DNA of 64,000 nt from a virus (taxonomy: Duplodnaviria; Heunggongvirae; Uroviricota; Caudoviricetes): positions 15,651-79,650 of the IMG/VR virus record IMGVR_UViG_2563366977_000001; one strand, written 5' to 3'. Shown here piece by piece: positions 16,564-62,316 of this stretch (position 1 is its first letter; each line of letters opens with the position of its first letter). Made by a program: the position numbers and the translations under genes. The notes under the pieces were generated by a model. It worked only from the letters and a program-made list of their open reading frames with translations, made no database searches and had not been told where the DNA came from.

Positions 16564-16630
16564 GCTTTGATGACTTTGATGTAAAACATTTTTTCAGCTA
16601 TTTGAACACCATGATGGTGTTATTCGTGAT

Positions 16631-18863: not shown

Positions 18864-18955
18864 AACAGTTCCTCACAGTCATAACCTGGGGGGAACTGTA
18901 TGCAGGGTGTGAAATGCGAGAAAGCAGCGTCACCTTGCCTGGTGACGCTGTGAAA

Positions 18956-19237
18956 TTATGCGTGTGAAAATAATGGACGGATGTTTGGGCGAGCGGTTTG
19001 CGAAGCAACCCAAAGCTCATACTGGGATTGCATACCGGTCCACATTTCGGCACTGGTTCCAAGAGCGGACTCCAGACGAAGTGCCATATCAGCGGAAATA
19101 CCTGTTTTTTCGTTCAAAATTCGGGAAAGTGCCGTGCGAGTAATGCCTAATGCAGCAGCGGTGTCTGTGACTGATATGTCTCCCAAATATTCACGAAGAA
19201 CCGCGCCTGGATGCGCGGGATTATGCATACGACTCAT
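18956..19237 (-). CDS. HigA-family HTH antitoxin-like protein (third gene of a TA operon)
   Basis: 93 aa; [21 protein letters not shown]; start overlaps upstream antitoxin stop (ATGA). Confidence 0.6.
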
Positions 19238-19533
19238 ATGTGGAAAGCAACCCGTTTACCGGTTGGCAATTCAACGTCCAGACTCAACTTCCCACCCATA
19301 GCCTCAACGTAACGTTTAAGCGTTGCCACTTTCAAGTCATTGCCTCGTTGTTCAAGTTTTGTGATGGCTGGTTGACTAATTCCCATCGCATCGGCAACTG
19401 TTTTTTGTGATAACTGAAGCTCCTCTCTCAACATCTGCAATCCGACTTCCAGAATCATTTCATCAGCCTGCTCTTTGATACGAGCTTGGCTTTCAGGGGA
19501 TTGCGCAGCAATAACTTCTCTTAGAGTTCTCAT
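19234..19533 (-). CDS. XRE-family HTH antitoxin
   Basis: 99 aa; [24 protein letters not shown]; overlaps toxin stop. Confidence 0.65.
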
Positions 19534-19880
19534 TATTTTTTCTCAAGTTCTGCAAGATGGTTGGAAAATTCGTCGTCTGCAATCCGTATCATTCTTTCGT
19601 AGAACTTTTTATCGTTACTTTTATCTCCGGCGCACAGGATTATGGCTTGCCTTACCGGATCAAATGCGAAGAATGCTCTGATAGGGCGACCAGCGTACTG
19701 AATCCGTAACTCCTTCATGTTTTTATGGCGTGAGCCTTTAACTGTGTCGGCATATGGCCTTGATAATGAAGGGCCATATGTTTCCAGATTGATCAGGTCA
19801 ACCAGGATTTTTTCTTTTAATGCAGGTTCCTGTTCCTGGAACCATTCATCAAAAATTTTTCCAAAATAAATTTGCCACAT
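19533..19880 (-). CDS. RelE/ParE-superfamily toxin (phage Gp49-like / HigB-like)
   Basis: 115 aa; conserved KELRIQYAGRPIRAFFAF...IILCAGDK pattern typical of Gp49-like toxins. Confidence 0.7.
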   Translation of the reverse strand: MWQIYFGKIFDEWFQEQEPALKEKILVDLINLETYGPSLSRPYADTVKGSRHKNMKELRIQYAGRPIRAFFAFDPVRQAIILCAGDKSNDKKFYERMIRIADDEFSNHLAELEKK

Positions 19881-19916
19881 AGTTATTCAAAATCCTTTTT
19901 AATAAACTACATGTTA

Positions 19917-19951
19917 TAAACTACAGGTTATAGCATATAACCTGTAGTTTA
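19917..19951. promoter_or_regulatory. Palindromic operator upstream of the toxin-antitoxin operon
   Basis: TAAACTACAGGTTATA-GC-ATATAACCTGTAGTTTA perfect palindrome plus a direct half-repeat AAACTACATGTTATA. Confidence 0.55.
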
Positions 19952-19985
19952 TATTTTCAAGACCGTTTTTTATTCGATTTAGCAT

Positions 19986-20639
19986 TTAAAGTATCACGGT
20001 ATCCTCATCAACTTCTGTCCCTGCCAGTGACTTTGGCTGGGAGGCGGCTGCTTTAACCTTCTCATGCCCAATAATGGACAGGAACGAGGCCATTATCCCT
20101 GCTTTGTTTTCTTTCTCTACCGATCCAGTCATTTGCTTCAGGTAATCCGCGCTGGCAACATTGTGGTATACCGTTGCATAGCAGCACAGAATCATCAGGA
20201 TGTGCTCTGGTCGGATATCTTGCCAGTTAACTCGATAAACCTCTTCACCGTTGCCGTTGTATTCGGTATCGACGATAGAGTCGGGGATCTCGAATGCCCC
20301 TTTGTTCTTGTCAGGCAGGGATAGCAGCCTTTGTAGTTTCAGCTCTCGGTATCTCTCCATGCCGACAATGATCGCCGCTCTGCCGTCGGCGTGCCGTGTT
20401 TTTAATGTTACCTGGCTGGCACCTGTACCGGCTGAAATGGTTGGCGTGATTTCGTCAACCAGCACCTTAAATTCACTTTTACGCAGCTCGGCAATTGCTG
20501 GTGGAATTTTTCGTTTTTGTTCAATAGCAGATGCTGGGAGGGGCTTTACTTTGTCAATTACAAGCGCACCGTCTTTCAGGACTGCCGTAGCCATCAGCGG
20601 CTTGTTAGTCGAAAGGCTGAATATTGCGATCTTTTGCAT
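19986..20639 (-). CDS. Hypothetical protein
   Basis: 217-aa ORF, no recognisable motif. Confidence 0.4.
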   Translation of the reverse strand: MQKIAIFSLSTNKPLMATAVLKDGALVIDKVKPLPASAIEQKRKIPPAIAELRKSEFKVLVDEITPTISAGTGASQVTLKTRHADGRAAIIVGMERYRELKLQRLLSLPDKNKGAFEIPDSIVDTEYNGNGEEVYRVNWQDIRPEHILMILCCYATVYHNVASADYLKQMTGSVEKENKAGIMASFLSIIGHEKVKAAASQPKSLAGTEVDEDTVIL

Positions 20640-20904: not shown

Positions 20905-21534
20905 ATGAAGGATGGTTTTGTGAAGTTAAGGGTTTTGGGAGCAGTGCTCGCGGTTATATTGGGGGGAGTTTCTCTTAATGCTGCCTATGCAGGCGCGTTA
21001 CCTGCAAAGTATGAGGCTGGGCTGAAGGTGTTGCGAAACGCCAAAACAAACTATACGCCTGATGAAGTTTCAAACTATTGCCAGAAAGAAAATATCCCGC
21101 TGAAACCTGTAGAGCCATTCTTTAAAAGCAACATTGAGTTCTGTGTATTTGCATATGCAGCAGATGAAACAGGCAAAGCCATACAAAAGACAGGGTATTC
21201 CACCAAAGACACAATGTCGGTGTTAAGTAACGGCGTGTTGCAGTTTGAGCTTTATCGTCAGCAAGGAATGGGAGATCTATTGCAGCCTTTGTATATGCTG
21301 GCTTGGGTGCCTGAAGGGCAGCAGTTTCTTATCCGGAAAGGGATGCTTCGGCAAAGTGATGTGGCAGGATTCAATAACATGATGGAACTTGAACGAGCCG
21401 CGAAGCAAAAACAAGCACCTAAGCAACCTACAGCGGAATGCATTCGTAGTGAGATCCAAAAGATATTAAGTGAGCAGCCTTACATTGATCGTGGGGTAGC
21501 CGAAGTCGCTGCAAAAATGAAATGTACTAATTAA
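20905..21534 (+). CDS. Secreted protein (signal peptide), AT-rich cargo
   Basis: Trimmed to ATG 20905; N-terminal signal LRVLGAVLAVILGGVSLNAAYA. Confidence 0.5.
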   Translation: MKDGFVKLRVLGAVLAVILGGVSLNAAYAGALPAKYEAGLKVLRNAKTNYTPDEVSNYCQKENIPLKPVEPFFKSNIEFCVFAYAADETGKAIQKTGYSTKDTMSVLSNGVLQFELYRQQGMGDLLQPLYMLAWVPEGQQFLIRKGMLRQSDVAGFNNMMELERAAKQKQAPKQPTAECIRSEIQKILSEQPYIDRGVAEVAAKMKCTN

Positions 21535-21577
21535 AGTCAAATAGAATAACAAAATGGTAACATCTGGAGTTTGTGAA

Positions 21578-30179: not shown

Positions 30180-30183
30180 TGGA

Positions 30184-30762
30184 GTGGATCAAAAAATGAA
30201 AGAACGCGGGATGATTTTTAACGATGAGATGGTCCGGGCAATTCTTGGCGGGAATAAAACACAGACTCGCAGGATTGTTGAAGAAAAATTCTATGGACGA
30301 GCAGTTGCCGCAGAGTTGCTTGCTAAGCATTGTCCATATGGTCAACCGGGCGATCGTATTTGGGTTCGCGAAACCTACCGGGTACATGGCAAAGCGACGG
30401 ACGTCGCAACGCTGGTTTATCGCGCAAGCGTGCGTAACTCCTGGACAGAACAAACGCACCGGGTTCCGGTCGAGGTTTGTAATAAACCAGTATCAGAAAA
30501 GTGGACGCCATCAATTCACATGCCGCGCTGGGCATCGCGCATTCTTCTGGAAATTACCGACGTGCGTGTGGAACGGCTGCATGACATGAGCGAGGCGGAT
30601 GCTAAAGCAGAAGGCGCAGCTCCGGCGACGTACAAGATTACGCCACCTGAAGCTGTTTATCGCGTTGGTTTTGGTGATATCTGGCGCAGTATTTACGGGC
30701 AGGATAACTGGCTATCTAACCCGTGGGTATGGGTAATCGAGTTTAAGCGCATTCAGGAATAA
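30184..30762 (+). CDS. ASCH/PUA-like domain protein
   Basis: N-terminal FNDEMVRAILGGNKTQTRR and IWVRETY resemble ASCH fold signature. Confidence 0.4.
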   Translation: MDQKMKERGMIFNDEMVRAILGGNKTQTRRIVEEKFYGRAVAAELLAKHCPYGQPGDRIWVRETYRVHGKATDVATLVYRASVRNSWTEQTHRVPVEVCNKPVSEKWTPSIHMPRWASRILLEITDVRVERLHDMSEADAKAEGAAPATYKITPPEAVYRVGFGDIWRSIYGQDNWLSNPWVWVIEFKRIQE

Positions 30763-30765
30763 ACC

Positions 30766-31644
30766 GTGAGTATGCATCAAGTCGTCAGCTTTTCAGGTGG
30801 ACGAACATCGGCTTATCTCGTTCATCTGATGGAAGCACAGCGAAAAGCTGGCGCTAGCGTCCATTTCATTTTTATGGATACCGGCTGTGAACATCCTCTG
30901 ACGTATCGCTTTATTCGTGAGGTTGTGAAGTTCTGGAACGTACCGCTAACGGTGTTGCAGGTCGATATAAATCCAGAACTTGGGCAGCCAAATGGTTATA
31001 CGGTATGGGAACCAAAGGATATTCAGACTCGACTGCCGGTGCTTAAACCGTTTATGGACATGGTTAAAAAGTACGGTACGCCATACATCGGCGGCGCGTT
31101 CTGTACCGACAGGCTAAAACTCACCCCTTTCACGAAATATTGCGATGACCATTTTGGGCGAGGGAACTACATCACGTGGCTGGGTATTCGTGCAGACGAA
31201 CCCCGTAGGCTGAAACCGAAACCGGGCGTCCGGTATCTTGCCGAGCTGTCAGATTTTGATAAGTCGGATGTTATCCGGTGGTGGCGAAAACAACCTTTTG
31301 ATTTGCAAATCCCGGAGCACCTCGGGAACTGTGTTTTTTGCATCAAAAAGTCAACGCAAAAGCTGGGGCTTGCATGTAAAGACGAACCAGGTCTGATGCG
31401 GGTTTTTAATGAACTGGTTACAGGCAAACACGTCAGGGATGGTCATCGCAGAACAGGTAAAGACGTTATGTACCGTGGTCACCTGACGCTTGACGGGATT
31501 ACCAGAATGTATGCCGACAGCGACTACAGAAATTTGTATCAGGCGATGGTGCAGGCCAAGCGGTTTGATACTGGTTCGTGTTCCGAATCATGTGAAATCT
31601 GGGGTGACCAATTGGAGTTGAAATTCGAAGAGGTAGTGGAATGA
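30766..31644 (+). CDS. pap: PAPS reductase-family (PP-loop) protein, P1 Pap-like
   Basis: SFSGGRTS PP-loop motif near N-terminus; 292 aa. Confidence 0.7.
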   Translation: MSMHQVVSFSGGRTSAYLVHLMEAQRKAGASVHFIFMDTGCEHPLTYRFIREVVKFWNVPLTVLQVDINPELGQPNGYTVWEPKDIQTRLPVLKPFMDMVKKYGTPYIGGAFCTDRLKLTPFTKYCDDHFGRGNYITWLGIRADEPRRLKPKPGVRYLAELSDFDKSDVIRWWRKQPFDLQIPEHLGNCVFCIKKSTQKLGLACKDEPGLMRVFNELVTGKHVRDGHRRTGKDVMYRGHLTLDGITRMYADSDYRNLYQAMVQAKRFDTGSCSESCEIWGDQLELKFEEVVE

Positions 31645-31844
31645 CAATCGTAAAAACCCATACCGGTACCGTGATCACCAAAGATGGCCCGCAGGTAAAA
31701 AAACTGCACCAAACAGAGCGGATGTGGGGCGTTGGCAAAAACGAGTTTTACCACAAAGAAACTGGACGCCGCCATTTTGCAGAAAATACGCGCCGCCGAC
31801 TGCTGTTAGACACCATCAAGCCTATCGAGGTGAAGCATGTTTAA
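31641..31844 (+). CDS. Hypothetical protein
   Basis: 67-aa ORF overlapping pap stop. Confidence 0.3.
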   Translation: MTIVKTHTGTVITKDGPQVKKLHQTERMWGVGKNEFYHKETGRRHFAENTRRRLLLDTIKPIEVKHV

Positions 31845-32076
31845 ACAGAACGAAAAAGCTATCGCTCAAATTGCTGATTATATCCCGCGTGCGTGCCGGG
31901 GTATGCAGTTGCAGGAAGCCAAAGCGCGCCTGGAGAAAAAAATTGCGCTCTATATTGATGACGGCTGTGATGCCGCCGTTCTTAACGCGGCGTTCGCACC
32001 AGCTCTTAACTGTCATACTCGGGAGTCTTTTTTTTCGTGCATCGCAGCGCAACTCCGCAAAGGAGGCAACCAGTGA
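31837..32076 (+). CDS. Hypothetical protein
   Basis: 79-aa ORF. Confidence 0.3.
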   Translation: MFKQNEKAIAQIADYIPRACRGMQLQEAKARLEKKIALYIDDGCDAAVLNAAFAPALNCHTRESFFSCIAAQLRKGGNQ

Positions 32077-32339
32077 GTGAGTCAAAATGCCAAATTAATG
32101 GCAACAAGATAGAACCGTGCGCGGCGTTGACGCAATCCCTGGAACATGACGCTGAATACACGACGCGAAAAGGTCTGCTGAAATACAAAATCTATAACCA
32201 TGCATTAATTCATTCACAAGACCTGATCATGCTGCGGTCAGGCGAGTTTTCTAAATCGCCGATTCGAATTTCATTTTGCCCGTTCTGTGGTGAAAGTCTG
32301 AAAACGTGGGAAGCGGAGGCAACCAGTGATCAAAATTAA
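32037..32339 (+). CDS. Hypothetical protein (start uncertain)
   Basis: 100-aa ORF overlapping neighbours; C-terminal CPFCG motif. Confidence 0.3.
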   Translation: MHRSATPQRRQPVSESKCQINGNKIEPCAALTQSLEHDAEYTTRKGLLKYKIYNHALIHSQDLIMLRSGEFSKSPIRISFCPFCGESLKTWEAEATSDQN

Positions 32340-33057
32340 CTATCAAGAACTGCGCGAGGCGGCGGAACAGGCAACGCAAGATGAATGGGTAGCATATATT
32401 TTGCCGGGTCATAACGGCATTTATCCTGCGCGCACGTCTGAGGGTAGGCATTGCGGATACTTTATTGACTGGCCTGGCATTGATGGGCAAAGGAATGCTG
32501 GTGCTAATGCCCGTTATATCGCGGCTATCCCACCAAAAGTTGCGCTGGCACTACTGGATGAGATCAACGCATTAGAGGAAACGCGTATCAACGATGTTTG
32601 CCGTATTGTGGAACTAACAAAACAACTGGAGTCGGCAAAATCAAAACTCAACGAGCAGCGCGAGCATTACGAGGGAGTAATCGCGGATGGAGGTAAGCGC
32701 ATAGCAGAACTGGAAAAACAATGCGCTGAATCGGAGCGAAAAGCATTAAGCAACTTTGAAGAGTGTGCTGCGATGGCTGAACGTATCGAAGAGTTGGAGC
32801 AGGCCAACACAAGACAGGACGCCAATATAAACCACCAGCAGGAGGGCGTGACTCAATCAGTCACCCGATACATATATCACTACAACGCAGTGAATGGTTC
32901 TGACTCTATGTCTGGAATTGCGCGGTTAACTTTCATGATCAAATCACAATCTGACCTTGACGCACTTAAAAGCGCACTTAGCAAGGTTGGTGGTTTCCGT
33001 GCAAAAGCAATTACATCTCTTTCATATCTTGGGTGTGAGGAAGATAGCAAACGATGA
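32326..33057 (+). CDS. Ead/Ea22-like protein
   Basis: N-terminal INYQELREAAEQATQDEWVAY ... ARYIAAIPPKVALALLDE typical of Ea22-like prophage proteins. Confidence 0.5.
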   Translation: MIKINYQELREAAEQATQDEWVAYILPGHNGIYPARTSEGRHCGYFIDWPGIDGQRNAGANARYIAAIPPKVALALLDEINALEETRINDVCRIVELTKQLESAKSKLNEQREHYEGVIADGGKRIAELEKQCAESERKALSNFEECAAMAERIEELEQANTRQDANINHQQEGVTQSVTRYIYHYNAVNGSDSMSGIARLTFMIKSQSDLDALKSALSKVGGFRAKAITSLSYLGCEEDSKR

Positions 33058-33587
33058 AAGAAGGATTTAAAGATAATTCAGGTGCAGCGCAAAACACTGG
33101 AGAAATCATTGAGGCATTTAATGGGGAGGAAATGCCCACTTTATTCAGAAAAGAATATCCGCGAAAGAGTAGAGCAATAGAATTGCTGTTTATCATTCTG
33201 TTTTTCGTGTTGCTGATACCAATAGCCTCAATATTAGTGACTGTTCTAATGGGGAAAGTATTTGAACCGTTAGTTGAACTGTATATCGATATAGTGTGGA
33301 CCCCATTCAGGAAGCTACACAATAAAATTAACCCACATAAGGAAACAGATATGGCAACTTTGAAAAAAGAAGATCGTTTTACCAAAAAACAAATCGCCGA
33401 GGCAAAAATCCTCGATAACAACGGAACCTACTTCATCAACGGTTCCATTCTTCCAGTTTATATCAATGAGGATGGAGACACTTACCTTATTGAAGAGTAC
33501 GAAAAAGGCGAGCCGAGCGAACACCTCATTAAAGATTTGTTCGCGGATGGCGTTATTGTTGCGGTTAATCCAATCGGATACAACTGA
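33054..33587 (+). CDS. AT-rich membrane protein
   Basis: 177-aa ORF with hydrophobic helix LLFIILFFVLLIPIASILV; low GC. Confidence 0.35.
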   Translation: MKEGFKDNSGAAQNTGEIIEAFNGEEMPTLFRKEYPRKSRAIELLFIILFFVLLIPIASILVTVLMGKVFEPLVELYIDIVWTPFRKLHNKINPHKETDMATLKKEDRFTKKQIAEAKILDNNGTYFINGSILPVYINEDGDTYLIEEYEKGEPSEHLIKDLFADGVIVAVNPIGYN

Positions 33588-33597: not shown

Positions 33598-34344
33598 ATG
33601 ACCACTTTAACCGACAAAGAACTGATTAAAGAAATCAAAGAGCGCATAGGCAGTCTGGACGTGCGAGACAATATTGAGCGCCGTGCTTATGAAATTGCGC
33701 TGGCATCTCTGGAAGCAGAGCCAGTTGGTGATTTTTATGAATACAAACCGGGTGACTGGTATCAGCGTTCGGTCGGGGATAAAGCACCAAAGTGGGTGCC
33801 GTTATATGCCACTCCGCCAGTTCCGGAATTGCAGGCTGATGTCGCACAAGCAATTGAAAATCTCAAGCAGAAGTTAGTGGAATGCAATCGCTATAACTAC
33901 TGCGCAGATGCAGTTAAAGGCGTAGAGGATGCCTGCCGTGCTGTTAGCTATAGCCAAGCCGACAATCAACCAGCATCTGGCAACCAGGCTGCCGAATCCA
34001 ATCGCGGTAATGAGTGGACCGGCAATCCTGATATTGATAACGCCATCATCATGCTCGACCGCATAGATACGCTGGAAAATTGCGATGATGACCGTATTGA
34101 GGGTGTTAAGGCTGTTTTGCGCAGACTGGCTGTCAACTATCCGGTAACTCCGGATGGTTGGATAAGCTGTAGTGAGCGAATGCCAGCTCAAGATGATTGG
34201 ATTTTAATTTATTCAAAGCACGGTGAGTATATGGCAGGCCAGGTGCAAGGGGAATACGTGGAGTTGAGCGACGGCACTTTATCGTGGTTAGGGAACGCCT
34301 TGTTCTGGATGCTGCTACCAGAACCGCCCCAGGAGGCTGGTTAA
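33598..34344 (+). CDS. Ead-like protein with C-terminal DUF551-like domain
   Basis: C-terminal WISCSERMP ... DWILIY ... FWMLLPEPP pattern. Confidence 0.45.
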   Translation: MTTLTDKELIKEIKERIGSLDVRDNIERRAYEIALASLEAEPVGDFYEYKPGDWYQRSVGDKAPKWVPLYATPPVPELQADVAQAIENLKQKLVECNRYNYCADAVKGVEDACRAVSYSQADNQPASGNQAAESNRGNEWTGNPDIDNAIIMLDRIDTLENCDDDRIEGVKAVLRRLAVNYPVTPDGWISCSERMPAQDDWILIYSKHGEYMAGQVQGEYVELSDGTLSWLGNALFWMLLPEPPQEAG

Positions 34345-34439
34345 TGAGCTGGCCTGAAGCATTCGCAACGGTAGGAATTGCAATGGCGGTAGCACTGGTG
34401 GTGTATTCAATTTGCCGTTGGGGGTGATAAGTGAAATAG

Positions 34440-34461
34440 TGCGGGGTATCGTGCAGCCCCG
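34440..34461 (+). terminator. Hairpin terminator (GCGGGG-N10-CCCCGC) with T-rich tail
   Basis: Stem-loop after ORF 33598..34344. Confidence 0.45.
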
Positions 34462-34555
34462 CTGATTTGATTATTTTGTAGAGTTGCATAACAGCATCTG
34501 GCTTGAGTTTCTCCTCCATCTTGGATTATTATTACCGCCCCTATACTTAACTGTA

Positions 34556-34591
34556 ATAATAACTATCTGTTAAACCTGATAGTTATTATTT
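34556..34591. promoter_or_regulatory. Palindromic operator AATAATAACTATC-N10-GATAGTTATTATT upstream of perC-like gene
   Basis: Perfect 13-bp inverted repeat about 25 bp before start codon. Confidence 0.45.
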
Positions 34592-34616
34592 AATATTTAG
34601 TGTGATAGGAGGTTGT

Positions 34617-34916
34617 ATGGTTAAAGATAAAAAAGCTGAAGAACTTGAAAATAAAGGGCTTTGGCGCAGAGCCGCGGCTCGCTGGCAAGATGTGCTGATG
34701 GATTATCTCCAGGATAATCAGACAGACCAGCGGATGTATATTCAGAGGCAAATTCAACGTTGCATTAAATCAGCCACATCAAAAAATGTAAGTTCAAGAG
34801 AAGTCACGACCTCAAGAGCATTACGCAATTCAGCAATACGCGTAGAGAAAGAAATGGGAATACATCGCAATCGCAAGGCTGCACATGATGAATTATATAC
34901 CTATCGGGGTAGGTGA
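34617..34916 (+). CDS. PerC-family transcriptional activator-like protein
   Basis: MVKDKKAEELENKGLWRRAAARW N-terminus resembles PerC/Pch family. Confidence 0.55.
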   Translation: MVKDKKAEELENKGLWRRAAARWQDVLMDYLQDNQTDQRMYIQRQIQRCIKSATSKNVSSREVTTSRALRNSAIRVEKEMGIHRNRKAAHDELYTYRGR

Positions 34917-35162
34917 TTTAAATAATGTGATAGCGTTAAGAGAAATTTTATAAATTGTTTATATGTGACGGGTTAATAGGGGTATTACAGACACTCTTGA
35001 TAAGATAATAAATATTTAAAAGTCATTAACATCACCTATCAAAAATATGCACGTTTTATTTCTACATCGTAATAGTGTACAGGTATATGATTCACCCATG
35101 CTGATGGAGCTTACCGTGGTGACTACACCTTGCAGCCAAAGGTGAATAAGATATAAGGATTC

Positions 35163-35576
35163 TTGATGCACTGGCTGCGAGTAGCCTATAAGGCCGATAC
35201 TAAGCCGGTAATTAACACCATCCTTGAAAAATATCATCTTGAAGCGGCATTGATGACTAAGTCTGGCGATACTCTAGGCATGGTGAGCACAACGTTAGTT
35301 CATGAAATGGCTAAGGCTTTATTGCTGCTGGTGGCTGACAACATGAGGCGGACCATGCCAACGAAAGCTGAGTTACAGGCGCGCGTAGAGATTCTTGAAA
35401 AAGAGAATGCTAGCCTCAAAGGAATGCTGGCGCGGGCGGAAAGGGAAATTATCAGGCAAATTATTGCCAGAGGAGCGACCACCAGCAGATATACCCGACC
35501 GAGTGTCCCGGTGGATGAAGTCTTTTTGTTTGTCGTGGGAGACTTTTTGGTGCTACGACCATCGCAGATGGTGTGA
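35163..35576 (+). CDS. Hypothetical protein
   Basis: 137-aa ORF with central coiled coil. Confidence 0.35.
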   Translation: MMHWLRVAYKADTKPVINTILEKYHLEAALMTKSGDTLGMVSTTLVHEMAKALLLLVADNMRRTMPTKAELQARVEILEKENASLKGMLARAEREIIRQIIARGATTSRYTRPSVPVDEVFLFVVGDFLVLRPSQMV

Positions 35577-36007: not shown

Positions 36008-36259
36008 GTGTCAGATCGAAATATAGCAGCTAAAAGCCAGGAAGAGCGAGACAAGGTGAACGTAGACCTTGCCGCCAGCGGCGTTGCTTACAAAGAACGA
36101 CTGAATATACCTGTGATTGCAGAGCAGGTGGCCCGTGAGCAACCGGAAAACCTGCGCGCCTATTTCATGGAACGGCTACGGCACTACCGGCAGTTAAGCC
36201 TCCAGTTGCCAAAAGGGAGCGATCCGGTGTATCAGAACGAGGATGCACCAAAAAAATAA
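36008..36259 (+). CDS. hot: Hot, homologue of DNA polymerase III theta subunit
   Basis: [39 protein letters not shown] closely parallels E. coli HolE. Confidence 0.75.
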
Positions 36260-36635
36260 CGGCAAGATGGGGGAGACATTAAACATGCTTAACTATCACG
36301 ACAACACGCGTTCTATGCAGACAATCCGCACCAATACAGCGGTGGTCGATAGCTTTCCTGTACATACTCAAGGCCGTGAAGATACCGTGGAAGTGCGACG
36401 CATGTTGTGTCGCCGGTCACCGGGCCACCAGCACTTCATCGTAACGTTTAAAAGCGATGTAGAGCGCGCCGAGAAAATCTCTAACTCCACATCTCTGGTT
36501 AAGCCGTTAGCGGAGGTTATTGTGCGCAACAATAAGGCGCGCTTTGTCCTTGAGGAGCATCATTCTGATTTTAATGAAAAAATCGAGTCAAGCATTTTGC
36601 AATATATGAATGGCACGTTCACGCCACCAATGTGA
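36243..36635 (+). CDS. Hypothetical protein at the P1 lxr position
   Basis: 130-aa ORF between hot and humD; start uncertain. Confidence 0.35.
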
Positions 36636-36698
36636 TTAGCCCCCAGCGTGGCGCGCGTACAAACCCCGCTTTCACAAACTATGCCTTTTCAATGTATA

Positions 36699-40420: not shown

Positions 40421-40905
40421 TGCTTTTTAGCTCTCCGGGTAAATGTATAAATCCGGCGTTTGATATGCGGAGCGGTCGGAACGGAGACGCAGGTATTCTC
40501 GATAACACCTTGTTCCTCCAGCGATCGCACAGCACGCAAGAACTGTGATGCATCACCACCGCCAGACAGCCAGAATTTGCGGGCATAGACGCTGCCATTA
40601 CGGATAATTTCTGCGATCACCCGCGCTTGCGTCTGGCTTTCTCGATAGCCAAAGAGTTCTCTTGCCTCTCCTTGTGGGATAGCCAACTGATAGCCTTTCC
40701 CGCTACGGTGACGAACAAAACCGTGAGCAATGAGGTTCTTCAGCTCATTTCTGGTGCGGATACACCCGTACTCAGGGAACTGTGTGTTGATATCACCAGG
40801 CTTATGCCATTCATCAGGACTATCAGCCAGGAGGGACAGAAGTTTCCCTGACAGCTCAGGATTAGTGGTTGGATAACAGTTCAGGGATGGGTAGTAAGTT
40901 TTCAT
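40417..40905 (-). CDS. Hypothetical protein
   Basis: 162-aa ORF overlapping dut start by 4 nt. Confidence 0.4.
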   Translation of the reverse strand: MKTYYPSLNCYPTTNPELSGKLLSLLADSPDEWHKPGDINTQFPEYGCIRTRNELKNLIAHGFVRHRSGKGYQLAIPQGEARELFGYRESQTQARVIAEIIRNGSVYARKFWLSGGGDASQFLRAVRSLEEQGVIENTCVSVPTAPHIKRRIYTFTRRAKKQ

Positions 40906-41246
40906 TTGCGCCCCCTTGCCGGATAGCGCCCGGCATTCGCATCAGGGGCAATGAAGCCGCTGGTGGGGCGAGTGAAAACATGGTTAATTTTCTCGGTCAT
41001 AGCGCGATAATTTTCCTGATAGTGGGCCAGGAGTTTTTCAGCAGCAATGACGGTTACTTTCCGGACGTAGCGTTCAGCTTCCTCCAGATTTCGCCAGTTT
41101 TTTTCGAGGGTAAATACGGGAACGGCATCAAGTCCGGTCATAACACCGAACACCACGACCGCCTGGTCGCGCTTAACGCCCGCAGTGAAGGTTATGGTGT
41201 AACCGTCAACAGTGAAGCGTTTTGATTCCGTAATACGATTGTGCAA
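40902..41246 (-). CDS. Hypothetical protein downstream of recombinase (P1 cra position)
   Basis: 114-aa ORF; listed start is TTG inside a hairpin, true start uncertain. Confidence 0.3.
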   Translation of the reverse strand: MHNRITESKRFTVDGYTITFTAGVKRDQAVVVFGVMTGLDAVPVFTLEKNWRNLEEAERYVRKVTVIAAEKLLAHYQENYRAMTEKINHVFTRPTSGFIAPDANAGRYPARGRK

Positions 41247-41303
41247 AGTACCCTCCGCAATAGGCGAGGGTACTTTACATTAAAATGCACTGTCTAAAAA
41301 GAT

Positions 41304-41317
41304 TGTTAGAAAATTAA
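41304..41317 (-). promoter_or_regulatory. Operator-like motif TGTTAGAAAATTAA just after recombinase stop
   Basis: Recurrent motif instance. Confidence 0.4.
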
Positions 41318-41318
41318 T

Positions 41319-42347
41319 TTATGAATCCATCAGGCGACTATTTGCACCAACGGATGCCCCGCTACGGCGCAAATATCGCATAAGTGTTTCGGGCTTTTTC
41401 CATGTGCCTTCCTGCATGATCTCGACCATTGACACCTGTTTCTCAGCCATATCAATTGCCGCACCAACACGCGCACTATGGCCTGTCCACGTCCGGTATC
41501 TTCCCTTGTTCGGCGTGGCATCTCGTTTGTTCAGCAACCCCCAGGCATCGCTGAATATTTTCTCCATTGCAGGTGCAGTAAGGGGCGTTGTCGTGATTCT
41601 GGCCTTATTACTGCGGTGTATTGGCGGGAATAGCACCGCGTCCGGATGTTCTCGAAGTCCGGACACCTCCAGCCAGTCGTTCAGTACGGCGGTAGTGTAA
41701 CGAGAAAGCACCTTATCAAGTCCGGCGGCGGTCGTGATGGTCTTCGTGTGTGAAATATGCAGCGTTACAGTGTCACCTGTTTGGTCCAGATCTCCGACGC
41801 GGATGCGCGAGATTTCTGACATACGCATCAGGGTATTGTATGCCACGAAGAGAAACGCCCGATTGCGCAGGTCCACCAGCCGCTCGGAACGGGAAAGCAA
41901 CACGTCGAGCAATTTCAGATCATCCCACCGCAACGGTATAGCCTGGCCTGTTCGCTCACCTTTTTCCGTTGCCGCTTCGCGCCGGATGCGCCGCATGGCC
42001 AGAGACACACTTTTATCGTCCGACAGCGGCGGGAGGCCACATTGCGAAAGCAGCATGTTAAGCATGGCATAGTGCTTATCAATGGTGGTCGAGGCCAGAT
42101 CGGCCTCATGCAACTGGAGAAGATACTCGCGGGCCATTTCCGGCGTAATCGGGAACCAGGGGTGCTGGCGCGAATTACACCACCGCGCCCAGGAATGAAA
42201 CACCAGACGGAGATCTCGAAGCGTATTTGGGGCATAAGCTCCCTGGTCGTTCATGAACTGCATAAAGTTTTTTGCAGCTTCCTGGTATTCGGTGCCTATA
42301 TCGCGCAGAAAACCACCAGAACCGCCGGAGATAACTAGTTCACCCAT
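41319..42347 (-). CDS. cre: Cre-family tyrosine site-specific recombinase (Dre-like)
   Basis: 342 aa; colinear with P1 Cre (SWARWC, LNML, RN.AFL..AYNTL, TKT, GHSARVGAA, C-terminal Tyr in RYLRR). Confidence 0.9.
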   Translation of the reverse strand: MGELVISGGSGGFLRDIGTEYQEAAKNFMQFMNDQGAYAPNTLRDLRLVFHSWARWCNSRQHPWFPITPEMAREYLLQLHEADLASTTIDKHYAMLNMLLSQCGLPPLSDDKSVSLAMRRIRREAATEKGERTGQAIPLRWDDLKLLDVLLSRSERLVDLRNRAFLFVAYNTLMRMSEISRIRVGDLDQTGDTVTLHISHTKTITTAAGLDKVLSRYTTAVLNDWLEVSGLREHPDAVLFPPIHRSNKARITTTPLTAPAMEKIFSDAWGLLNKRDATPNKGRYRTWTGHSARVGAAIDMAEKQVSMVEIMQEGTWKKPETLMRYLRRSGASVGANSRLMDS

Positions 42348-42499
42348 GAAACTATTAAACCTCTATATACAGATAACGCTACGTGAAAAATAGAAAACTG
42401 ACAGGGTAGTTATAAGTTAATTTTCAAAATTCAAGCCTTTGATTCGAGGCATGATTTTTCATCCTTGTCAATACTACCTGTTTACTGGAGATTATAGCC

Positions 42500-42531
42500 T
42501 AACTTTAAATAATGCCAATTATTTAAAGTTA
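42500..42531. other. lox-type recombination site (rox-like)
   Basis: TAACTTTAAATAATGCCAATTATTTAAAGTTA perfect palindrome; readable as 13-8-13 (arm CTAACTTTAAATA vs loxP ATAACTTCGTATA, 9/13); 150 bp upstream of recombinase. Confidence 0.8.
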
Positions 42532-42612
42532 GAAATCAGGACTTTTTTCCCAAAAAAAACACCGACCAGATCACTTCGCAAATCCGTCAGCCATGCGGTA
42601 GCTGTTCCTGGT

Positions 42613-42714
42613 TACATTTTCTAATAGGAACAATCAAAAAAAAGCGGTTTTATCCTTTACTCACCTTGTTATTCAGCATAAATTTGTCACAGGACTTTTA
42701 TGTTAGAAAACTAA
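42613..42714 (+). promoter_or_regulatory. Two operator-like motifs (ATTTTCTAATA at about 42616, TGTTAGAAAAC at about 42701) upstream of ORF 42729
   Basis: Recurrent motif in both orientations in the leader of the gene at the c1 position. Confidence 0.45.
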
Positions 42715-42728
42715 ATCGAGTAGGAATA

Positions 42729-43766
42729 ATGAGTAAGAAGTCGATCGAGAATGAGTACAAACGGTTCCTGCAAACCGCTGAACGGTGGAAAGAGCTGGTG
42801 GTCGCAAACTCTGTTTTCCATGATACCAGTTATGTTGGCGAGGAATTTCGCCATGTTGCATTAACACATGATCCGGCTGTATTAGAAGAAGCTGAAAAAT
42901 GCATAGCCGAATGGAAAGCCTTTGTTGATCTGTGTCGCAAGGATGATGACAAAGCCTCAAACATTGTTGAGTCGGTTTATTTACCGATCCCATTCATTGT
43001 TGAGGATACTAATCAGAGTACGCATATCGTTATGCAAAGCGCAACCACAACGAGAACATTTACGCGCGAAGACCTGCTGAAAAAATACGATAAAACTATA
43101 AAGAAAAGCATGAAAAACAGGATATTTTCACAGGTTGTCGGTGCGCTTGAAGAAGAACGCAGATTCTTCGCCGCTGAACGTGAGGGCGAGGTATACCGCG
43201 CAAGAAAAGAAGGTTATACCGATGTGGTGATTACCACCAATATCGAGGGCAACAATGGACTTTCACGCTTCCGAGTGGGTGCGCACGGTGCGCTGATCTT
43301 TGCAAGAAAAGCAAACACAGAGATTCCCGTTGTTAACAACGTTGGTGAGCGCCGTACCCTTACCATTTACACTGGCATTAAACCGCTTCCGTGCGGACTT
43401 CTCGGCGAATTTGACCTTTATCGGGTTCGTGATCTGGAAAAGCAGCAGCCAAGCTATGTCGTGAAGTCATATATCCTGAGAAACATTGATATCCGCAATC
43501 AGAGTTTAAAAAACAAATCAGATAAAATGCTGGCCGAAGCCGATCCAGCCATACACCAGATCGTTAGCCGGAAAATTCAAGAGGCTAAAGATGCAATGGC
43601 AAGGCTGGATAAAATGGACCTGGAACTACTGGAAGTTATGATTGCCTCCGGCGATGACCTGACAGGCATCCGCCTTACTGAAGCCAGGAAAAAATACGGT
43701 AAAAGCGTTGAAGAACGCTATGGGTACACATTCACACAAACGATGTACGCGGCAAAACTCTGGTAA
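42729..43766 (+). CDS. Hypothetical protein at the position P1 uses for c1 repressor
   Basis: Trimmed to ATG 42729 (AGGAA RBS); no similarity to P1 C1 that I can recognise. Confidence 0.4.
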   Translation: MSKKSIENEYKRFLQTAERWKELVVANSVFHDTSYVGEEFRHVALTHDPAVLEEAEKCIAEWKAFVDLCRKDDDKASNIVESVYLPIPFIVEDTNQSTHIVMQSATTTRTFTREDLLKKYDKTIKKSMKNRIFSQVVGALEEERRFFAAEREGEVYRARKEGYTDVVITTNIEGNNGLSRFRVGAHGALIFARKANTEIPVVNNVGERRTLTIYTGIKPLPCGLLGEFDLYRVRDLEKQQPSYVVKSYILRNIDIRNQSLKNKSDKMLAEADPAIHQIVSRKIQEAKDAMARLDKMDLELLEVMIASGDDLTGIRLTEARKKYGKSVEERYGYTFTQTMYAAKLW

Positions 43767-43805: not shown

Positions 43806-45312
43806 AAATGTCAATATCAGGAATATCCACTTCTGCCAACACCTGATCGCGGAATGTTGCGAGTTCTGCGCCAATGTCTTCATTAGCAGGCACGTAATCC
43901 ACCAGCATAGTGAAGCAGTAGGTATCCCATCTGTCCGGCGACTTGATGTTTAACTTCTGCCGCATGTGCTCCTTGCGCATCATCGCTACCTTCCCTTCTT
44001 CGTTAAGCATATACGGGATTTTTGATGCCTGATCTGCGGTTTTGGGGTCACTATCGATACGCATACGCCCTGATTTAATGGCATCCCCTGCCATAATATT
44101 GGCGTAAGCACGCTGATTGACAAAGCGTTCTCTGTCTCTTAGCGCAAACATAGGCTTACCCCAACGGATGCGAACGGGATTAGCACCACGGCGGACAAGC
44201 TGCGCACACGTATCTGAACCAAAGCCATCAGCATCCACAGCAATGGTGATGTTCGGGTATTTATCAGGAGTGCATTCGTTATAGATAAAGTCGGCAAAAG
44301 CCAACGGGTCCATAGTGCCTGGCATCTCCAGTATCTTAAAGTTCACAACGCGTCGTTTCTCACGATAACCGGATACTTTGCATATATTGAGCACCGATTT
44401 GTCGCGACCATTACCGACGTCAGCGGTCGCTACCCAGCCCCAATCTTTCTCCAGCAACACTTTACGCCGTGCGGCGCGGTCGCACTCATCACGACCAAGC
44501 AAATACCCGTTAATTGCACGCGGGAACTGGCCCAGCACCTTAACCATGTACTCCAGCGAATCCCTGCCGCCGTACTCCAGCAATTTCTCACGAATAAAGC
44601 TCGGTTCAACGAATGGAGATTCTTCAGAGTTAAGGACTATTGCCGTCCAGACTCCTTCCGGATTGCCTTCTGCCTTTGCCCTTGAATGGTGGGATTCATA
44701 AAAGTAACCGCTTGGACGCGTAGGCTGGGAAAGCATGAGCATACGGTTATCTTTCTGCGTTAACGCCCCCGTCATGACGTTAATCGCCTTATCGGATATG
44801 CCCGATGCTTCATCAAGGATTAGCAGTAAATGCTCCGCGTGCTCCCCCGCCAGTGCCTCTTCGTTACCGAGTCGATAACCTTTACAGAGCACTTCCCATA
44901 TCCCTTTACGGGAACGCTCATAAAACATGGTGTCAGACAGGACAAAATAGGTCTGTAACCAGCCGTGGCGCTTAACAGCATTCGCCCAAAACTGTTTCAC
45001 GTATTTGAATACGCCTGTTTTTACCTGGCCTATTTTGTTCGCAACAATAATGACGCGGGCGTCGGGGAACAGGATCATAAAAATTAGTAGCAACATCGCG
45101 GTAAGGGATGACTTACCCGTTCCGTGTCCGGACGTAACGGTCGTCCTGCTCCCCGTCTCCTGCACTGACTGAATGATCTGCTGCTGCTGATGGGAGGGGA
45201 ACATCCCAAAAATATCGACAACCGCCTGGGTAAAGTTGTATCGATACCTGATAACCATATCGCGCCAACGTGGATCACTGGTGACGCACTTAATCTTACG
45301 ACCACCAGCCAT
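43804..45312 (-). CDS. pacB: Terminase large subunit PacB
   Basis: 502 aa; Walker A TSGHGTGKS; directly downstream of pacA with 1-nt overlap. Confidence 0.85.
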   Translation of the reverse strand: MAGGRKIKCVTSDPRWRDMVIRYRYNFTQAVVDIFGMFPSHQQQQIIQSVQETGSRTTVTSGHGTGKSSLTAMLLLIFMILFPDARVIIVANKIGQVKTGVFKYVKQFWANAVKRHGWLQTYFVLSDTMFYERSRKGIWEVLCKGYRLGNEEALAGEHAEHLLLILDEASGISDKAINVMTGALTQKDNRMLMLSQPTRPSGYFYESHHSRAKAEGNPEGVWTAIVLNSEESPFVEPSFIREKLLEYGGRDSLEYMVKVLGQFPRAINGYLLGRDECDRAARRKVLLEKDWGWVATADVGNGRDKSVLNICKVSGYREKRRVVNFKILEMPGTMDPLAFADFIYNECTPDKYPNITIAVDADGFGSDTCAQLVRRGANPVRIRWGKPMFALRDRERFVNQRAYANIMAGDAIKSGRMRIDSDPKTADQASKIPYMLNEEGKVAMMRKEHMRQKLNIKSPDRWDTYCFTMLVDYVPANEDIGAELATFRDQVLAEVDIPDIDI

Positions 45313-46676
45313 TAGTCATCCTCCGGCTGGTCTATCACAATCTCGTCATCTACAGCATCAAAACCGGTATCCCCCGCGTCATAATCACCGTAGATATCAG
45401 CCGTGGCGGAAGGGTCTATATTCAGGTCTTCATCATTGGCCTCAAATTCACCGGCTTTACGTTCTCCGTTCCGGTCGTAATCCCCCATCCCAAGCCTATC
45501 AACGATTTTCGCTACTTCAGCCCGGCGTTGTGCAAGCCATTGTGGGAGTCCAGCTTGTTGCTCGGCAAACTGCTTCGCCTCTTTATCCAGTTGCTCATCA
45601 TCAACATCGTTAACGTCAGAAACCGGAGGCTCCAGAAGTGAGATCGCTTTTGCCGCTCGTGCCGCCAGGATAGCTGGGACACTGACGCCCTGCCGCTCGA
45701 TATATTCAGCTACGCCTATATCGTCCAGCTCCTCGCGCTCACGCATACGTATAGCGGCGGCGATAACCCTGGCGGCGCGTGCGTCAGCGCCAATGCGATA
45801 CTCAATCTCCTTGCCACGCTGCTCGGCCTGCAGGCGGGCAATCGCCAGTTTTTCTCTGGCCTCAGCCTCCCTGAATGCCTGCTGACGCGCGCCCTGCGCA
45901 AGTTTTTCATCCCCCTGGCGTAGCTTCTGCTCGGTCTGGTAGATGGCTGCCAACCTACTGATAAAGTCATTCATGTAGTAGGCCGCATCGCTTATTAGGC
46001 CGAGAAGACGCTGCCCTGGGTGCATCCCCTCTGGCTGTGTATCGCCGAGGGCGTCAATCTCTTCCTGTAGTCGCTCCGCTTCCTGGTCAACGATGGCCTG
46101 ATACTGAATTGCTCGTTCCTGCGCCATCTGTATCGCAAGTCGTAAATGTTCAGTCGCGCCGTTCTTCATCATCTCACGGGCGACGTTGGTGGCAGGCAAA
46201 GTGGCGCTTTGAGCTGATGAGTCAGGGATCATTTGCAATGATCCCTTGTTTCGTTGGGCTTTTTCGCTGCTTTTAGGGATCATTTCTCCCATTTCATCAC
46301 AAAATGATCCCTTCACATCCTTGTGTATCCTGTTGTTATTACTTGGTTTTTCTTTGTGATCCGCATTTTGTTTTTGCGGCATGGCGCGGAACTGTCCACC
46401 AGCTAACGATTTGTCAGTTTTTGTAAATTCTGTGCTTTTATCAGCCTTTTTTTGCTCTTTTTTTGAGCCGGTGGCGCTGCTTTTTGCGCGCTGTTTTGTA
46501 CTTTTCCCGGCAGCCTTAGCTTTCGCCTTAACCTCATTTTTTTTCATATTGAGATGCTTTCTGGCGGTGTTAAAGCTGAGGTCATGCTGCTCGCAATATT
46601 CTTTTATGGTGATCCCGGTTTCTTCTCTTAACTCCAGGAACTTAGCTCGATGCGCCTCCCAGTTAATTAACGTCAT
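45312..46676 (-). CDS. pacA: Terminase small subunit PacA (contains pac site)
   Basis: 454 aa; N-terminal HTH-like segment, K-rich linker, acidic C-terminus; GATC-rich pac repeats inside 5' part. Confidence 0.7.
   Translation of the reverse strand: MTLINWEAHRAKFLELREETGITIKEYCEQHDLSFNTARKHLNMKKNEVKAKAKAAGKSTKQRAKSSATGSKKEQKKADKSTEFTKTDKSLAGGQFRAMPQKQNADHKEKPSNNNRIHKDVKGSFCDEMGEMIPKSSEKAQRNKGSLQMIPDSSAQSATLPATNVAREMMKNGATEHLRLAIQMAQERAIQYQAIVDQEAERLQEEIDALGDTQPEGMHPGQRLLGLISDAAYYMNDFISRLAAIYQTEQKLRQGDEKLAQGARQQAFREAEAREKLAIARLQAEQRGKEIEYRIGADARAARVIAAAIRMREREELDDIGVAEYIERQGVSVPAILAARAAKAISLLEPPVSDVNDVDDEQLDKEAKQFAEQQAGLPQWLAQRRAEVAKIVDRLGMGDYDRNGERKAGEFEANDEDLNIDPSATADIYGDYDAGDTGFDAVDDEIVIDQPEDD
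46225..46373. other. Candidate pac packaging site: clustered GATC-containing octamers
   Basis: GGGATCAT / ATGATCCC at about 46225, 46238, 46276, 46304 plus GTGATCCG at 46366, inside the pacA 5' region. Confidence 0.55.
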
Positions 46677-48582: not shown

Positions 48583-48658
48583 TGGTGGCCCCTACCGGAC
48601 TTGAACCGGTGACCGTGCGATTATGAGTCGCCCGCTCTAACCACTGAGCTAAAGGGCC
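48583..48658 (-). tRNA. tRNA with CAU anticodon, most similar to tRNA-Ile2 (lysidine) rather than tRNA-Met
   Basis: Hand-folded cloverleaf: acceptor GGCCCTT/AGGGGCC, anticodon arm GGCGA-CTCATAA-TCGC, T-loop GGTTCAAGTCC, 3' CCA. Confidence 0.75.
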
Positions 48659-49087
48659 AGATTACTGTTAATTACGCTTACGCTTTTTGCCAGAACCGCG
48701 TAAGGCTTTTGCCGCTTGCTCTACCCCGTATGCAACCACCAGCAGAAACAATAATGTCCACTCCGGGTTTTTATCGGCAAACGCCCAAAAATCCATCACT
48801 TGCAGCCACCTTTTAAGACAAAACGCCATTGCTGTTAGGTTGCGGTGCCGGGTGCCTCCCGGTGACGTTAACCAGTTAACAATTAACGCCGGATCACTTA
48901 TGGATTCTCGTTACGCCAGTAAAAAGACCACCTTTACTGTTTTAACTGTTCCGCGTGCGCTTAGCCGCATTCACCGCAATGGTAAGAGCATTTGGCTGAC
49001 TGGGCGGCGATGACGCCTGTACGCATTTGGTGATCCGGTTCTGCTTCCGGCATTCGCTTAATTAGCCAAATACTCTTAACGTTGCGA

Positions 49088-49174
49088 TGGCGGAGAGTAA
49101 TGGAATCGAACCATCATCGCTTGCGCGACGGGACGGTTTTCAAGACCGCTTGAGCACCATGCTCCCTACTCTCC
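49088..49174 (-). tRNA. tRNA-Ser (UGA anticodon), long variable arm
   Basis: Acceptor GGAGAGT/ACTCTCC, discriminator G, anticodon loop CTTGAAA, 17-nt variable arm, T-loop TTCGATT, CCA. Confidence 0.6.
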
Positions 49175-49415
49175 AGTGATTGTGGTGGTCGGTACTGATC
49201 TCCGACTGCGCCTCTTTTTTTCATAGCCCATAAGGCCGGTCAGTGCGCTTGATGACTGAGGCATCGATATTTACTACGCCGCCTCGTTGCCATAGGGCGG
49301 ACTTGCGCGCCAGCAACGCGCATTCACCACAACGGAAAGAGCATTTATGGCTCGCATCGCGGGAAAAAGCCCACGGTAGAGAGTCGAACTCTACAAATGC
49401 TCTTACCTGTTGTGT

Positions 49416-49491
49416 TGGTGCCGGTTAACGGGATCGAACCGCTGACCATTCGCTTACAAAGCGACTGCTCTACCAACTGAGCTAAACCGGC
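49416..49491 (-). tRNA. tRNA-Thr (UGU anticodon)
   Basis: Acceptor GCCGGTT/AACCGGC, D-arm AGCTCAGTTGGTAGAGC, anticodon loop TTTGTAA, T-loop GGTTCGATCC, CCA. Confidence 0.8.
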
Positions 49492-49495
49492 AATT

Positions 49496-49582
49496 TGGTG
49501 GGGAGTGATGGAGTCGAACCACCCGAGTCGCAATGACAGTAGATTTACAGTCTACACCGCTACCTCTACGGACTAACTCCCC
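49496..49582 (-). tRNA. tRNA-Tyr (GUA anticodon)
   Basis: Acceptor GGGGAGT/ACTCCCC, anticodon arm GTAGA-CTGTAAA-TCTAC, long variable arm, CCA. Confidence 0.8.
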
Positions 49583-49587
49583 TAAAT

Positions 49588-49662
49588 TGGCGATGGTGGG
49601 TGGATTCGAACCACCGACCAGTTGGTTAACAGCCAACTGCTCTACCGCTGAGCTACACCATC
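49588..49662 (-). tRNA. tRNA-Asn (GUU anticodon)
   Basis: Acceptor GATGGTG/CACCATC, anticodon arm GTTGG-CTGTTAA-CCAAC, T-loop GGTTCGAATCC, CCA. Confidence 0.85.
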
Positions 49663-61068: not shown

Positions 61069-61163
61069 AACCGTTAAATCCGCCTTAAGCGGTACGGTTT
61101 GAGAGGGTATGGAGTGTGTTAATTTCGCAGAATCACACCCCGAAGGTTCTTACTCAAAAGGGA

Positions 61164-61637
61164 TCATGGTTGTACCTGGATAACATCCCCGTTCTTAACG
61201 GTGATGATTTCATCCAGAATAATAACTTGCGGATAATTACCTGCATACCAACTGAACGAACCAAACACCTCATATTGGCCTGGTGGTACGTTTTCAAATT
61301 CAAATTTGCCTTGAGCATCTGTCAGGACAGTTTTGTCATATTCCACAGCCCGGCCATCGATTGTTTCCAAGATCTGCGTATTGTAATTAATTTGTGGGGT
61401 GTTTTTGATATACGTCGTATATGGGCGGAGAGTAATTTTAGAACCAGCCCCAATCTTCACATCGCCGCCACGCGTCATACCAAATAACTCCCCCTTAACC
61501 TTGCCAGTGCCTTCTTTCGGCAATGCCTGGTACTCTTCTACGGGAAATGCAGGGCGTTTTACGACTTGCTTTTGAATAGGCGCACATCCTGATAATGCAA
61601 ATGCACAAACAATAGCCGCTAATATTGTTTTTTTCAT
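61164..61637 (-). CDS. Lipoprotein
   Basis: Start placed at MKKTILAAIVCAFALSGC by codon arithmetic from the ORF track; lipobox LSGC. Confidence 0.5.
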   Translation of the reverse strand: MKKTILAAIVCAFALSGCAPIQKQVVKRPAFPVEEYQALPKEGTGKVKGELFGMTRGGDVKIGAGSKITLRPYTTYIKNTPQINYNTQILETIDGRAVEYDKTVLTDAQGKFEFENVPPGQYEVFGSFSWYAGNYPQVIILDEIITVKNGDVIQVQP

Positions 61638-61824
61638 GACAATCTCTTTACTCAAATAGATAACGCAAGCTAACAATAACCAATGTTATCACTAACTTAG
61701 CGCAGTTTAACTTTTCTGTTAGATAATACATTGAATAAAGTTAAAGATGAATGCCGTTTAATAATGTTTGGTGTAATAGAAATCACATTCTCAACATAGT
61801 TATTGCTCTTTTTTCATTCGGAGC

Positions 61825-62316
61825 ATGATTATGATCAATAATGAACCTCGCTGGCTTATTGAAGCCCGTAAAAATATTGGAGTCACCGAAATAAAAGGAG
61901 CGAAACACAATCCTGAGATCGTCCAGTTCTGGCGGGATATTAAGCGCAGCGGAATTAAAGACGACGAAACGCCGTGGTGCGCTGCATTTGTTGGTGCAAT
62001 GCTGGAACGTGTAGGCATCCGCTCAACAAGATTTGAGTCGGCAAAATCCTATCTGGATTGGGGCGAGAAATTAGATACACCGGCATATGGATGTATCGTT
62101 GTATTTACTCGCACAGGCGGTGGGCATGTAGGCTTTGTTGTCGGACGCCGCGCCAATGGCGATCTGCTTGTCTTGGGTGGGAACCAGGGGGATGCTGTTA
62201 ATATTCGCGCATTCCCCACATCAAGAGTGTCTGGCTATCGCTGGCCTACTGGAGAACCACGCAATACAGCTCTGTTACCAGTCGGAGACGCAGCGACCTC
62301 AACTAATGAGGTATGA
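61825..62316 (+). CDS. Putative cell-wall hydrolase (CHAP / NlpC-P60-like)
   Basis: 163 aa; conserved Cys (ETPWCAAFVG) and His (GGGHVGFVVG) spaced as in papain-fold amidases. Confidence 0.45.
   Translation: MIMINNEPRWLIEARKNIGVTEIKGAKHNPEIVQFWRDIKRSGIKDDETPWCAAFVGAMLERVGIRSTRFESAKSYLDWGEKLDTPAYGCIVVFTRTGGGHVGFVVGRRANGDLLVLGGNQGDAVNIRAFPTSRVSGYRWPTGEPRNTALLPVGDAATSTNEV

Follow-up and report, generated by a model that had tools for sequence, protein, structure and literature searches.

The stretch of phage DNA analyzed here (64,000 nucleotides, hereafter the window) very probably carries the site-specific recombination system Dre/rox, here encoded by a D6-like phage-plasmid and corresponding to Cre/loxP of P1. 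Judged from the sequence, this feature is already known, and what the window contributes is a natural variant of Dre encoded beside the exact published rox site (Table 1). The primary paper on Dre/rox of Escherichia phage D6 is reportedly that of Sauer and McDermott, 2004. When positions 41000-43000 were compared with phage records by megablast, only D6 was retrieved, and the matching region is annotated there with 'dre: tyrosine recombinase', 'c1', and rox.

Table 1. Features of the window and of related loci, with their positions.
Feature	Position	Strand	Basis or remark
dre allele, Cre-family tyrosine recombinase, 342 aa	41319-42347	minus	ORF; matches to D6 Dre and Cre
rox site, TAACTTTAAATAATGCCAATTATTTAAAGTTA	42500-42531	+	32/32 identity to annotated D6 rox
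Putative sigma-70 promoter of dre	42491-42518	minus	Predicted from an 11/12 consensus match
c1 prophage repressor homologue	42729-43766	+	81% to D6 C1; divergent from dre across rox
pacA ORF	45312-46676		Syntenic with D6 pacA
pac-like cluster	46227-46362		Five GGGATCAT/ATGATCCC-type repeats with GATC; 5' part of pacA
Segment without D6 counterpart	4816-5440
Segment without D6 counterpart	15992-17354
Segment without D6 counterpart	18924-19987
Segment without D6 counterpart	20957-21550
Segment without D6 counterpart	30183-32093
Segment without D6 counterpart	32358-33132
Segment without D6 counterpart	34160-35225
Segment without D6 counterpart	36095-36638
Segment without D6 counterpart	61127-61841
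Mosaic ORF	30772-31644		PAPS-reductase family
Mosaic ORF	19533-19880		Gp49-like (DUF891)
Mosaic ORF	33598-34344		DUF551
rox variants with T-to-C change	~152 bp upstream of dre		L085, L089, L092, L094, L100, L102, L103, L106, L108
rox centre variants			CCCC (L091), CTCCA (L107), GCTA (L110, recombinase 69% identical)

The identity of the recombination site was established by a database check. A previous reading of the DNA, made from the letters only (the sequence-only reading), had taken the 32-mer for the rox site of D6, and this was confirmed: the same 32 bases form the misc_recomb feature described in AY753669 (phage D6) as 'region of crossover (rox) site for Dre recombinase'. With up to three mismatches tolerated, TAACTTTAAATAATGCCAATTATTTAAAGTTA was found once in the 64-kb window and in none of 100 shuffled versions, and the window scan revealed no second rox copy or pseudo-site at the same threshold and no further half-site copies with up to two mismatches. 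Together with 10 bp on the side of dre, the 32-mer makes up 42 bp without a single difference from D6, surrounded by intergenic DNA of 52-80% identity (80% toward dre and 52% toward c1), and the chance of finding 32 identical bases, computed from the identity of the flanks, is ~8e-7. Between the ATG of dre and rox there are 152 bases, in line with the distance of about 150 bp given previously.

The site had also been described as a perfect palindrome, and this does not hold, as the four bases in its middle read GCCA on one strand and TGGC on the other. It is composed of the arm TAACTTTAAATAAT, the asymmetric GCCA, and the arm ATTATTTAAAGTTA, with perfect arms of 14 bp; in the window, the outer C...G pair is complementary too, extending the arms to 15 bp (42499-42532), and in D6 the outer pair flanking rox shows no complementarity. 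In the loxP register, positions 42499-42532 read CTAACTTTAAATA / ATGCCAAT / TATTTAAAGTTAG, and CTAACTTTAAATA indeed matches the loxP arm at 9/13 positions. The division into 13-bp arms and an 8-bp spacer, already put forward in the sequence-only reading, corresponds to the register in which spacers are counted in the published loxP/rox/pox comparison (PMC4957104), and is backed functionally by the rox mutagenesis of Chuang et al., which pointed to a loxP-like 8-bp region (PMC4777119). The observed symmetry is 14-4-14 in rox and 13-6-13 in its relatives. Since those relatives, i.e., the L112 and L113 loci and the Pantoea-type loci described below, are symmetric for 13 bp, comparison of the sites indicates that the 14-bp symmetry is peculiar to rox, and that the family register is probably a loxP-like 13-8-13 with a predicted exchanged core of 6 bp, in agreement with PMC4777119. 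The 13-8-13 parsing is therefore reasonable.

The adjacent gene encodes the expected enzyme. The 342-aa ORF was found with an ATG start on the minus strand, and its product is identical to D6 Dre (AAV84949) at 322 of 342 residues (94%), with no gaps, and 41% identical to Cre. The colinearity with Cre noted previously was borne out, as residues 22-341 align with Cre 21-340 (E = 2e-71), and this was the best hit of a phmmer search against PDB chains, where matches were limited to Cre and its engineered derivatives. Pfam assigned the catalytic domain PF00589 (Phage_integrase) and the N-terminal SAM-like domain PF02899, giving a two-domain, Cre-colinear protein. The signature GHSARVGAA lies at residues 289-297, and the tyrosine aligned to Cre Y324 is Y325. 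When the window protein was aligned with D6 Dre, Cre, and three remoter relatives, R175, K202, H290, R293, W316, and Y325 (R173, K201, H289, R292, W315, and Y324 in Cre) were invariant columns, so the catalytic tetrad R175, H290, R293, and Y325 is fully retained. Moreover, R44, P259, and K263 occupy the positions of Cre K43, R259, and G263; Karimova et al. found R/P/K at these positions in both Dre and Panto, and reported that they contribute to the discrimination of rox/pox from loxP (PMC4957104).

At the DNA level, dre is 86.5% identical to its D6 counterpart, with 128 codons affected, 108 of them by synonymous changes; by these codon comparisons the gene is under strong purifying selection (dS ~0.73, dN 0.031, dN/dS 0.04). 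The 20 substitutions relative to D6 Dre are S2G, I5V, S9G, N16D, K19T, E26K, R30Q, H58N, A59S, L62H, A63P, S68T, F76L, D81E, H102Q, R217Y, D227E, V270G, G329S, and V331A, and 15 of them fall within residues 1-102. The segments aligned to helices B, D, and J of Cre, through which it recognizes DNA, are unaltered, save for H102Q at the end of D. That the window allele departs at 20 positions from the Dre that has been assayed, with H102Q beside the helix D-aligned segment among them, could be read as a sign that it has drifted in specificity or lost activity, leaving the adjoining rox as a relic. We regard this as highly improbable, given that the ORF is intact, with the low dN/dS just mentioned, the catalytic and specificity residues are retained, the adjoining cognate rox is unaltered, relatives of 69% identity keep the same arms alongside, and recombination of rox is retained even by Panto, whose identity to Dre is just 52% (PMC4957104). 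The recombination of rox by Dre has been demonstrated (PMC4777119), and D6 Dre is active on rox and inactive on loxP (PMC4957104); on the evidence given here, the 94%-identical window allele probably recombines rox and spares loxP as well. As a separate observation, positions 41242-41279, just 3' of dre, hold an inverted repeat whose 14-bp arms are 93% complementary and enclose a 10-nt loop; it overlaps the TTG with which the following minus-strand ORF (40902-41246) starts.

Following the Cre paradigm, one Dre monomer would bind each rox arm, and two sites with four monomers would form the synapse. Tyr325, helped by R175, K202, H290, R293, and W316, would cleave the DNA through a 3'-phosphotyrosine intermediate, and the strand pairs would be exchanged one after the other via a Holliday junction. 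The predicted cleavage positions are probably 6 bp apart, around TGCCAA, and the asymmetric centre of rox would set the direction of the site. The Cre mechanism on which this model draws is established knowledge, reportedly from Guo et al., 1997, and other studies.

Next, the D6-like nature of the window, which the sequence-only reading had proposed, proved to be correct because of the colinearity with D6, the plasmid matches, and the predominance of plasmids among the occurrences of the gene. The window is colinear with D6 from ~51 kb through the origin at rox to ~21 kb (D6 coordinates), and the alignment covers 53.7 of 64 kb with a DNA identity of 73-96%. Window and D6 (AY753669, MF356679) have in common the same 32-bp site, its 152-bp distance and orientation, the 342-aa protein, and the neighborhood, in the order dut, two orfs, dre, rox, c1, pacB, and pacA. 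They differ in that the window C1 is just 81% identical to that of D6, and that ~10 kb of the window is non-D6 DNA, distributed in about ten segments of 0.3-1.9 kb each. These segments are mosaic accessory DNA; aside from the three ORFs listed in Table 1, none of the tested ORFs within them had a Pfam match. By sequence comparison, the window is a diverged relative of D6 and not D6 itself. The two elements also carry tRNA genes: in the window, a minus-strand cluster at 48583-49662 contains five (Met, Ser-UGA, Thr, Tyr, and Asn), while ARAGORN detected four on the minus strand of D6 (L003, 6084-7850), with no tRNA-Tyr, and the annotation of the D6 record has three, on the plus strand, and leaves out tRNA-Met.

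The closest records were plasmids of ~92-94 kb from E. coli and E. marmotae, with 99% identity around dre and 98% identity across as much as 93% of a query of 25 kb; in these plasmids, dre is annotated merely as 'tyrosine-type recombinase/integrase'. A dre-like gene was present in 155 of 5,426 complete E. coli genomes, at 158 places in all, 153 of them on ~90-kb plasmids; the other five lie on records labelled chromosome. These five records, along with the Pfam family name Phage_integrase, would fit a reading of the protein as a phage integrase inserting the element into a chromosomal att site, with the inverted repeat as attP. This is extremely unlikely, as nearly all occurrences are on ~90-kb plasmids, the site is of the simple symmetric Cre type and lacks arm-type sites, colinearity of the protein with Cre extends over its full length, and the D6 element has plasmid maintenance genes.

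The comparison with P1 underlined both the kinship and the distance of the two systems. Cre, colinear with the window Dre at 41% identity, shares its fold and catalytic set, and the map position of recombinase gene and site next to c1 and the pac region is common to the window, D6, and P1. Both rox and loxP have the ACTT...TATA arm pattern, and the 34-mers match at 20-21 of 34 positions, with 9/13 in each arm; they differ at arm positions 8-10, which are CGT in loxP and TAA in rox. In P1, lox and cre lie 434 bp apart with cra in between, and the three annotated cre promoters are 104-424 bp from lox, none overlapping it; the 152-bp gap of the window is free of ORFs. Cre is inactive on pox, and Dre/rox serves as an orthogonal partner to Cre/loxP (PMC4957104).

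The window was also searched for elements known from P1. The pac-like cluster within pacA is the densest GATC cluster in the window, spans 135 bp, and is ~3.7 kb from rox. It was found by a plain GATC density scan; a search of the window for P1-type pac hexamers (at least five TGATCA/G per 200 bp) gave no result. The cluster resembles P1 pac in its position and richness in Dam sites, and is likely the pac packaging site. The P1 C1-operator consensus ATTGCTCTAATAAATTT was absent from the window with up to three mismatches allowed. Another motif, GTGTTAGAAAAT, was present in 23 copies with up to two mismatches, against 6.4 expected, and none of 100 shuffles reached 23. It often occurs in inverted pairs 20 bp apart (11186/11206, 25886/25906, 29111/29131, and 47142/47162), and the copies at 41303, 42616, and 42700 surround dre, rox, and c1, with others elsewhere. 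These copies are probably operators of the D6-type C1 repressor.

By analogy with P1, dimer resolution and DNA cyclization are the likely biological functions of the module. With a single rox per plasmid copy, Dre would convert plasmid-prophage dimers to monomers before partition. Infecting, terminally redundant linear DNA would be circularized whenever rox falls in the redundancy, which the position of the pac-like cluster, 3.7 kb away, would allow. For P1, dimer resolution and cyclization by Cre/lox were reportedly described by Austin, Ziese and Sternberg, 1981, and Sternberg et al., 1986.

We then compared the window with other Dre-clade loci. In IMG/VR, 35 loci encode relatives of the window protein, with 99% to 55% identity, and the analysis of sites included 34 of them, L111 having no upstream sequence. 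A rox-type site was present 151-153 bp upstream of the ATG, with the orientation kept, in 32/32 Dre-clade loci (99%-69% protein identity), and in 20 IMG/VR loci it was the canonical 32-mer. A T-to-C change at rox position 24, in the arm on the c1 side, was found in 11 of the 34 loci and was the sole change in nine; it occurs even beside a Dre 100% identical to that of D6, next to an 87-88% allele in L106 and L108, and combined with an altered centre in L107. Variation of rox is otherwise mostly in the centre (Table 1), as expected, because the crossover region need match only its sister copy. The two most distant loci, L112 and L113 (~55% identity), have a 13-6-13 site, TAACTTTATATAA-CTGACA-TTATATAAAGTTA, ~151 bp upstream of the gene.

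A second group, referred to here as Pantoea-type (L005-L078, from Pantoea, Mixta, Rahnella, and Erwinia), encodes recombinases 42-47% identical to the window protein. Dre and Panto, the latter from Pantoea sp. aB, each act on both rox and pox (PMC4957104), and the arms of pox are one base off those of rox. Sites were not found in the Pantoea loci with a fixed-spacing pattern, and a general inverted-repeat search revealed them in 49 of the 74, at 190-330 bp upstream of the tblastn gene match, or ~980 bp in two cases. They consist of two 12-bp arms around an 8-mer, e.g., ATGGGACT, ATTGACCT, and ATTGGCAT. In the sense of the gene, the 8-mer follows AT....T in 48/49 sites, the exception being ACTCCTAT, and is symmetric at its first and last base only, unless it ends in AT like rox; these sites are thus symmetric for 13 bp, as opposed to 14 in rox. 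Many of the contigs are also of hundreds of kb to >1 Mb, in contrast to the ~90-kb P1-like phage-plasmids. Two further observations were made in this group: L042, L045, and L068 have arms that match the loxP core, TAACTTCGTATA, exactly, and many of the sites are followed at once by GGATCC.

The analysis of the DNA between rox and dre showed that the site overlaps a putative promoter. On the strand of dre, the -35 hexamer TTGGCA (42518-42513) consists of the rox centre and a single flanking base at either end, i.e., the predicted 6-bp crossover region; the 16-nt promoter spacer is the rox arm nearer dre plus 3 bp, and the -10 hexamer TATAAT (42496-42491) starts 3 bp past that arm. TATAAT is constant, at the same spacing, in 34/34 Dre-clade sequences (the window, D6, and 32 IMG/VR loci, with protein identity down to 69%), while the three bases that precede it vary by lineage (GGC, AGC, GTA, TCA, and GGT), and those following vary too. 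The conservation of the 10-bp flank on the dre side would be explained by this element, since the invariant TATAAT lies there. A divergent promoter-like match on the plus strand (42486-42513, 9/12) was dropped, as its -35 is not conserved in D6.

This finding bears on whether the inverted repeat is mainly a promoter/operator of dre, with recombination as a secondary role, or serves both as a recombination site and as a Dre-repressed promoter. Taken together, these two versions are possible, if on balance not probable. The 11/12 sigma-70 match toward dre, the invariant TATAAT at fixed spacing among variable neighbors, and a dre-side flank that is 100% identical to D6 though outside the minimal site are all consistent with them; however, a consensus match is no proof of function, and the three natural centre variants degrade the -35, leaving 3/6 matches in L091 and L107 and 4/6 in L110. 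Such a promoter is also missing from P1 and the Pantoea-type relatives. In agreement, a -10 box at the promoter spacing was found in none of the 49 Pantoea-type loci, and, with L112 and L113 (~55% identity) lacking the promoter as well, a rox-embedded promoter as a family-wide feature was rejected. The solely regulatory version is excluded because the 32-mer by itself is a recombination target in heterologous systems (PMC4777119, PMC4957104).

Our preferred reading of the site is, then, that of a recombination site in the first place. That in D6-type elements rox doubles as the dre promoter, and that Dre acting on rox shuts off its own transcription, is a tentative and rather unlikely extension of it. 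With Dre on the site, both the -35 and the promoter spacer would be occluded, leading to autorepression, and this would hold the recombinase at a low level in the lysogen. The Tn3 resolvase acting at res shows a comparable self-shutoff. Neither a promoter within rox nor autoregulation of Dre came up in the searchable literature, so the observation of a rox-embedded promoter may be new, and the original description of Dre might already mention one.

Collectively, since Dre/rox is already a standard genome-engineering tool alongside Cre/loxP, its rediscovery in a D6-like prophage brings no new biology. The natural Dre allele, with 20 substitutions and an unchanged rox, shows positions of the protein that tolerate change, and the natural rox variants, i.e., one arm change and three centres, are candidate heterospecific sites. 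If rox is indeed a promoter, this would explain why the GCCA centre and the 10-bp flank are conserved past the needs of recombination, and would call for caution with bacterial constructs that place rox beside AT-rich sequence. Such a promoter would, moreover, give a natural case in which a recombinase of the Cre type controls itself by way of the site that it recombines.
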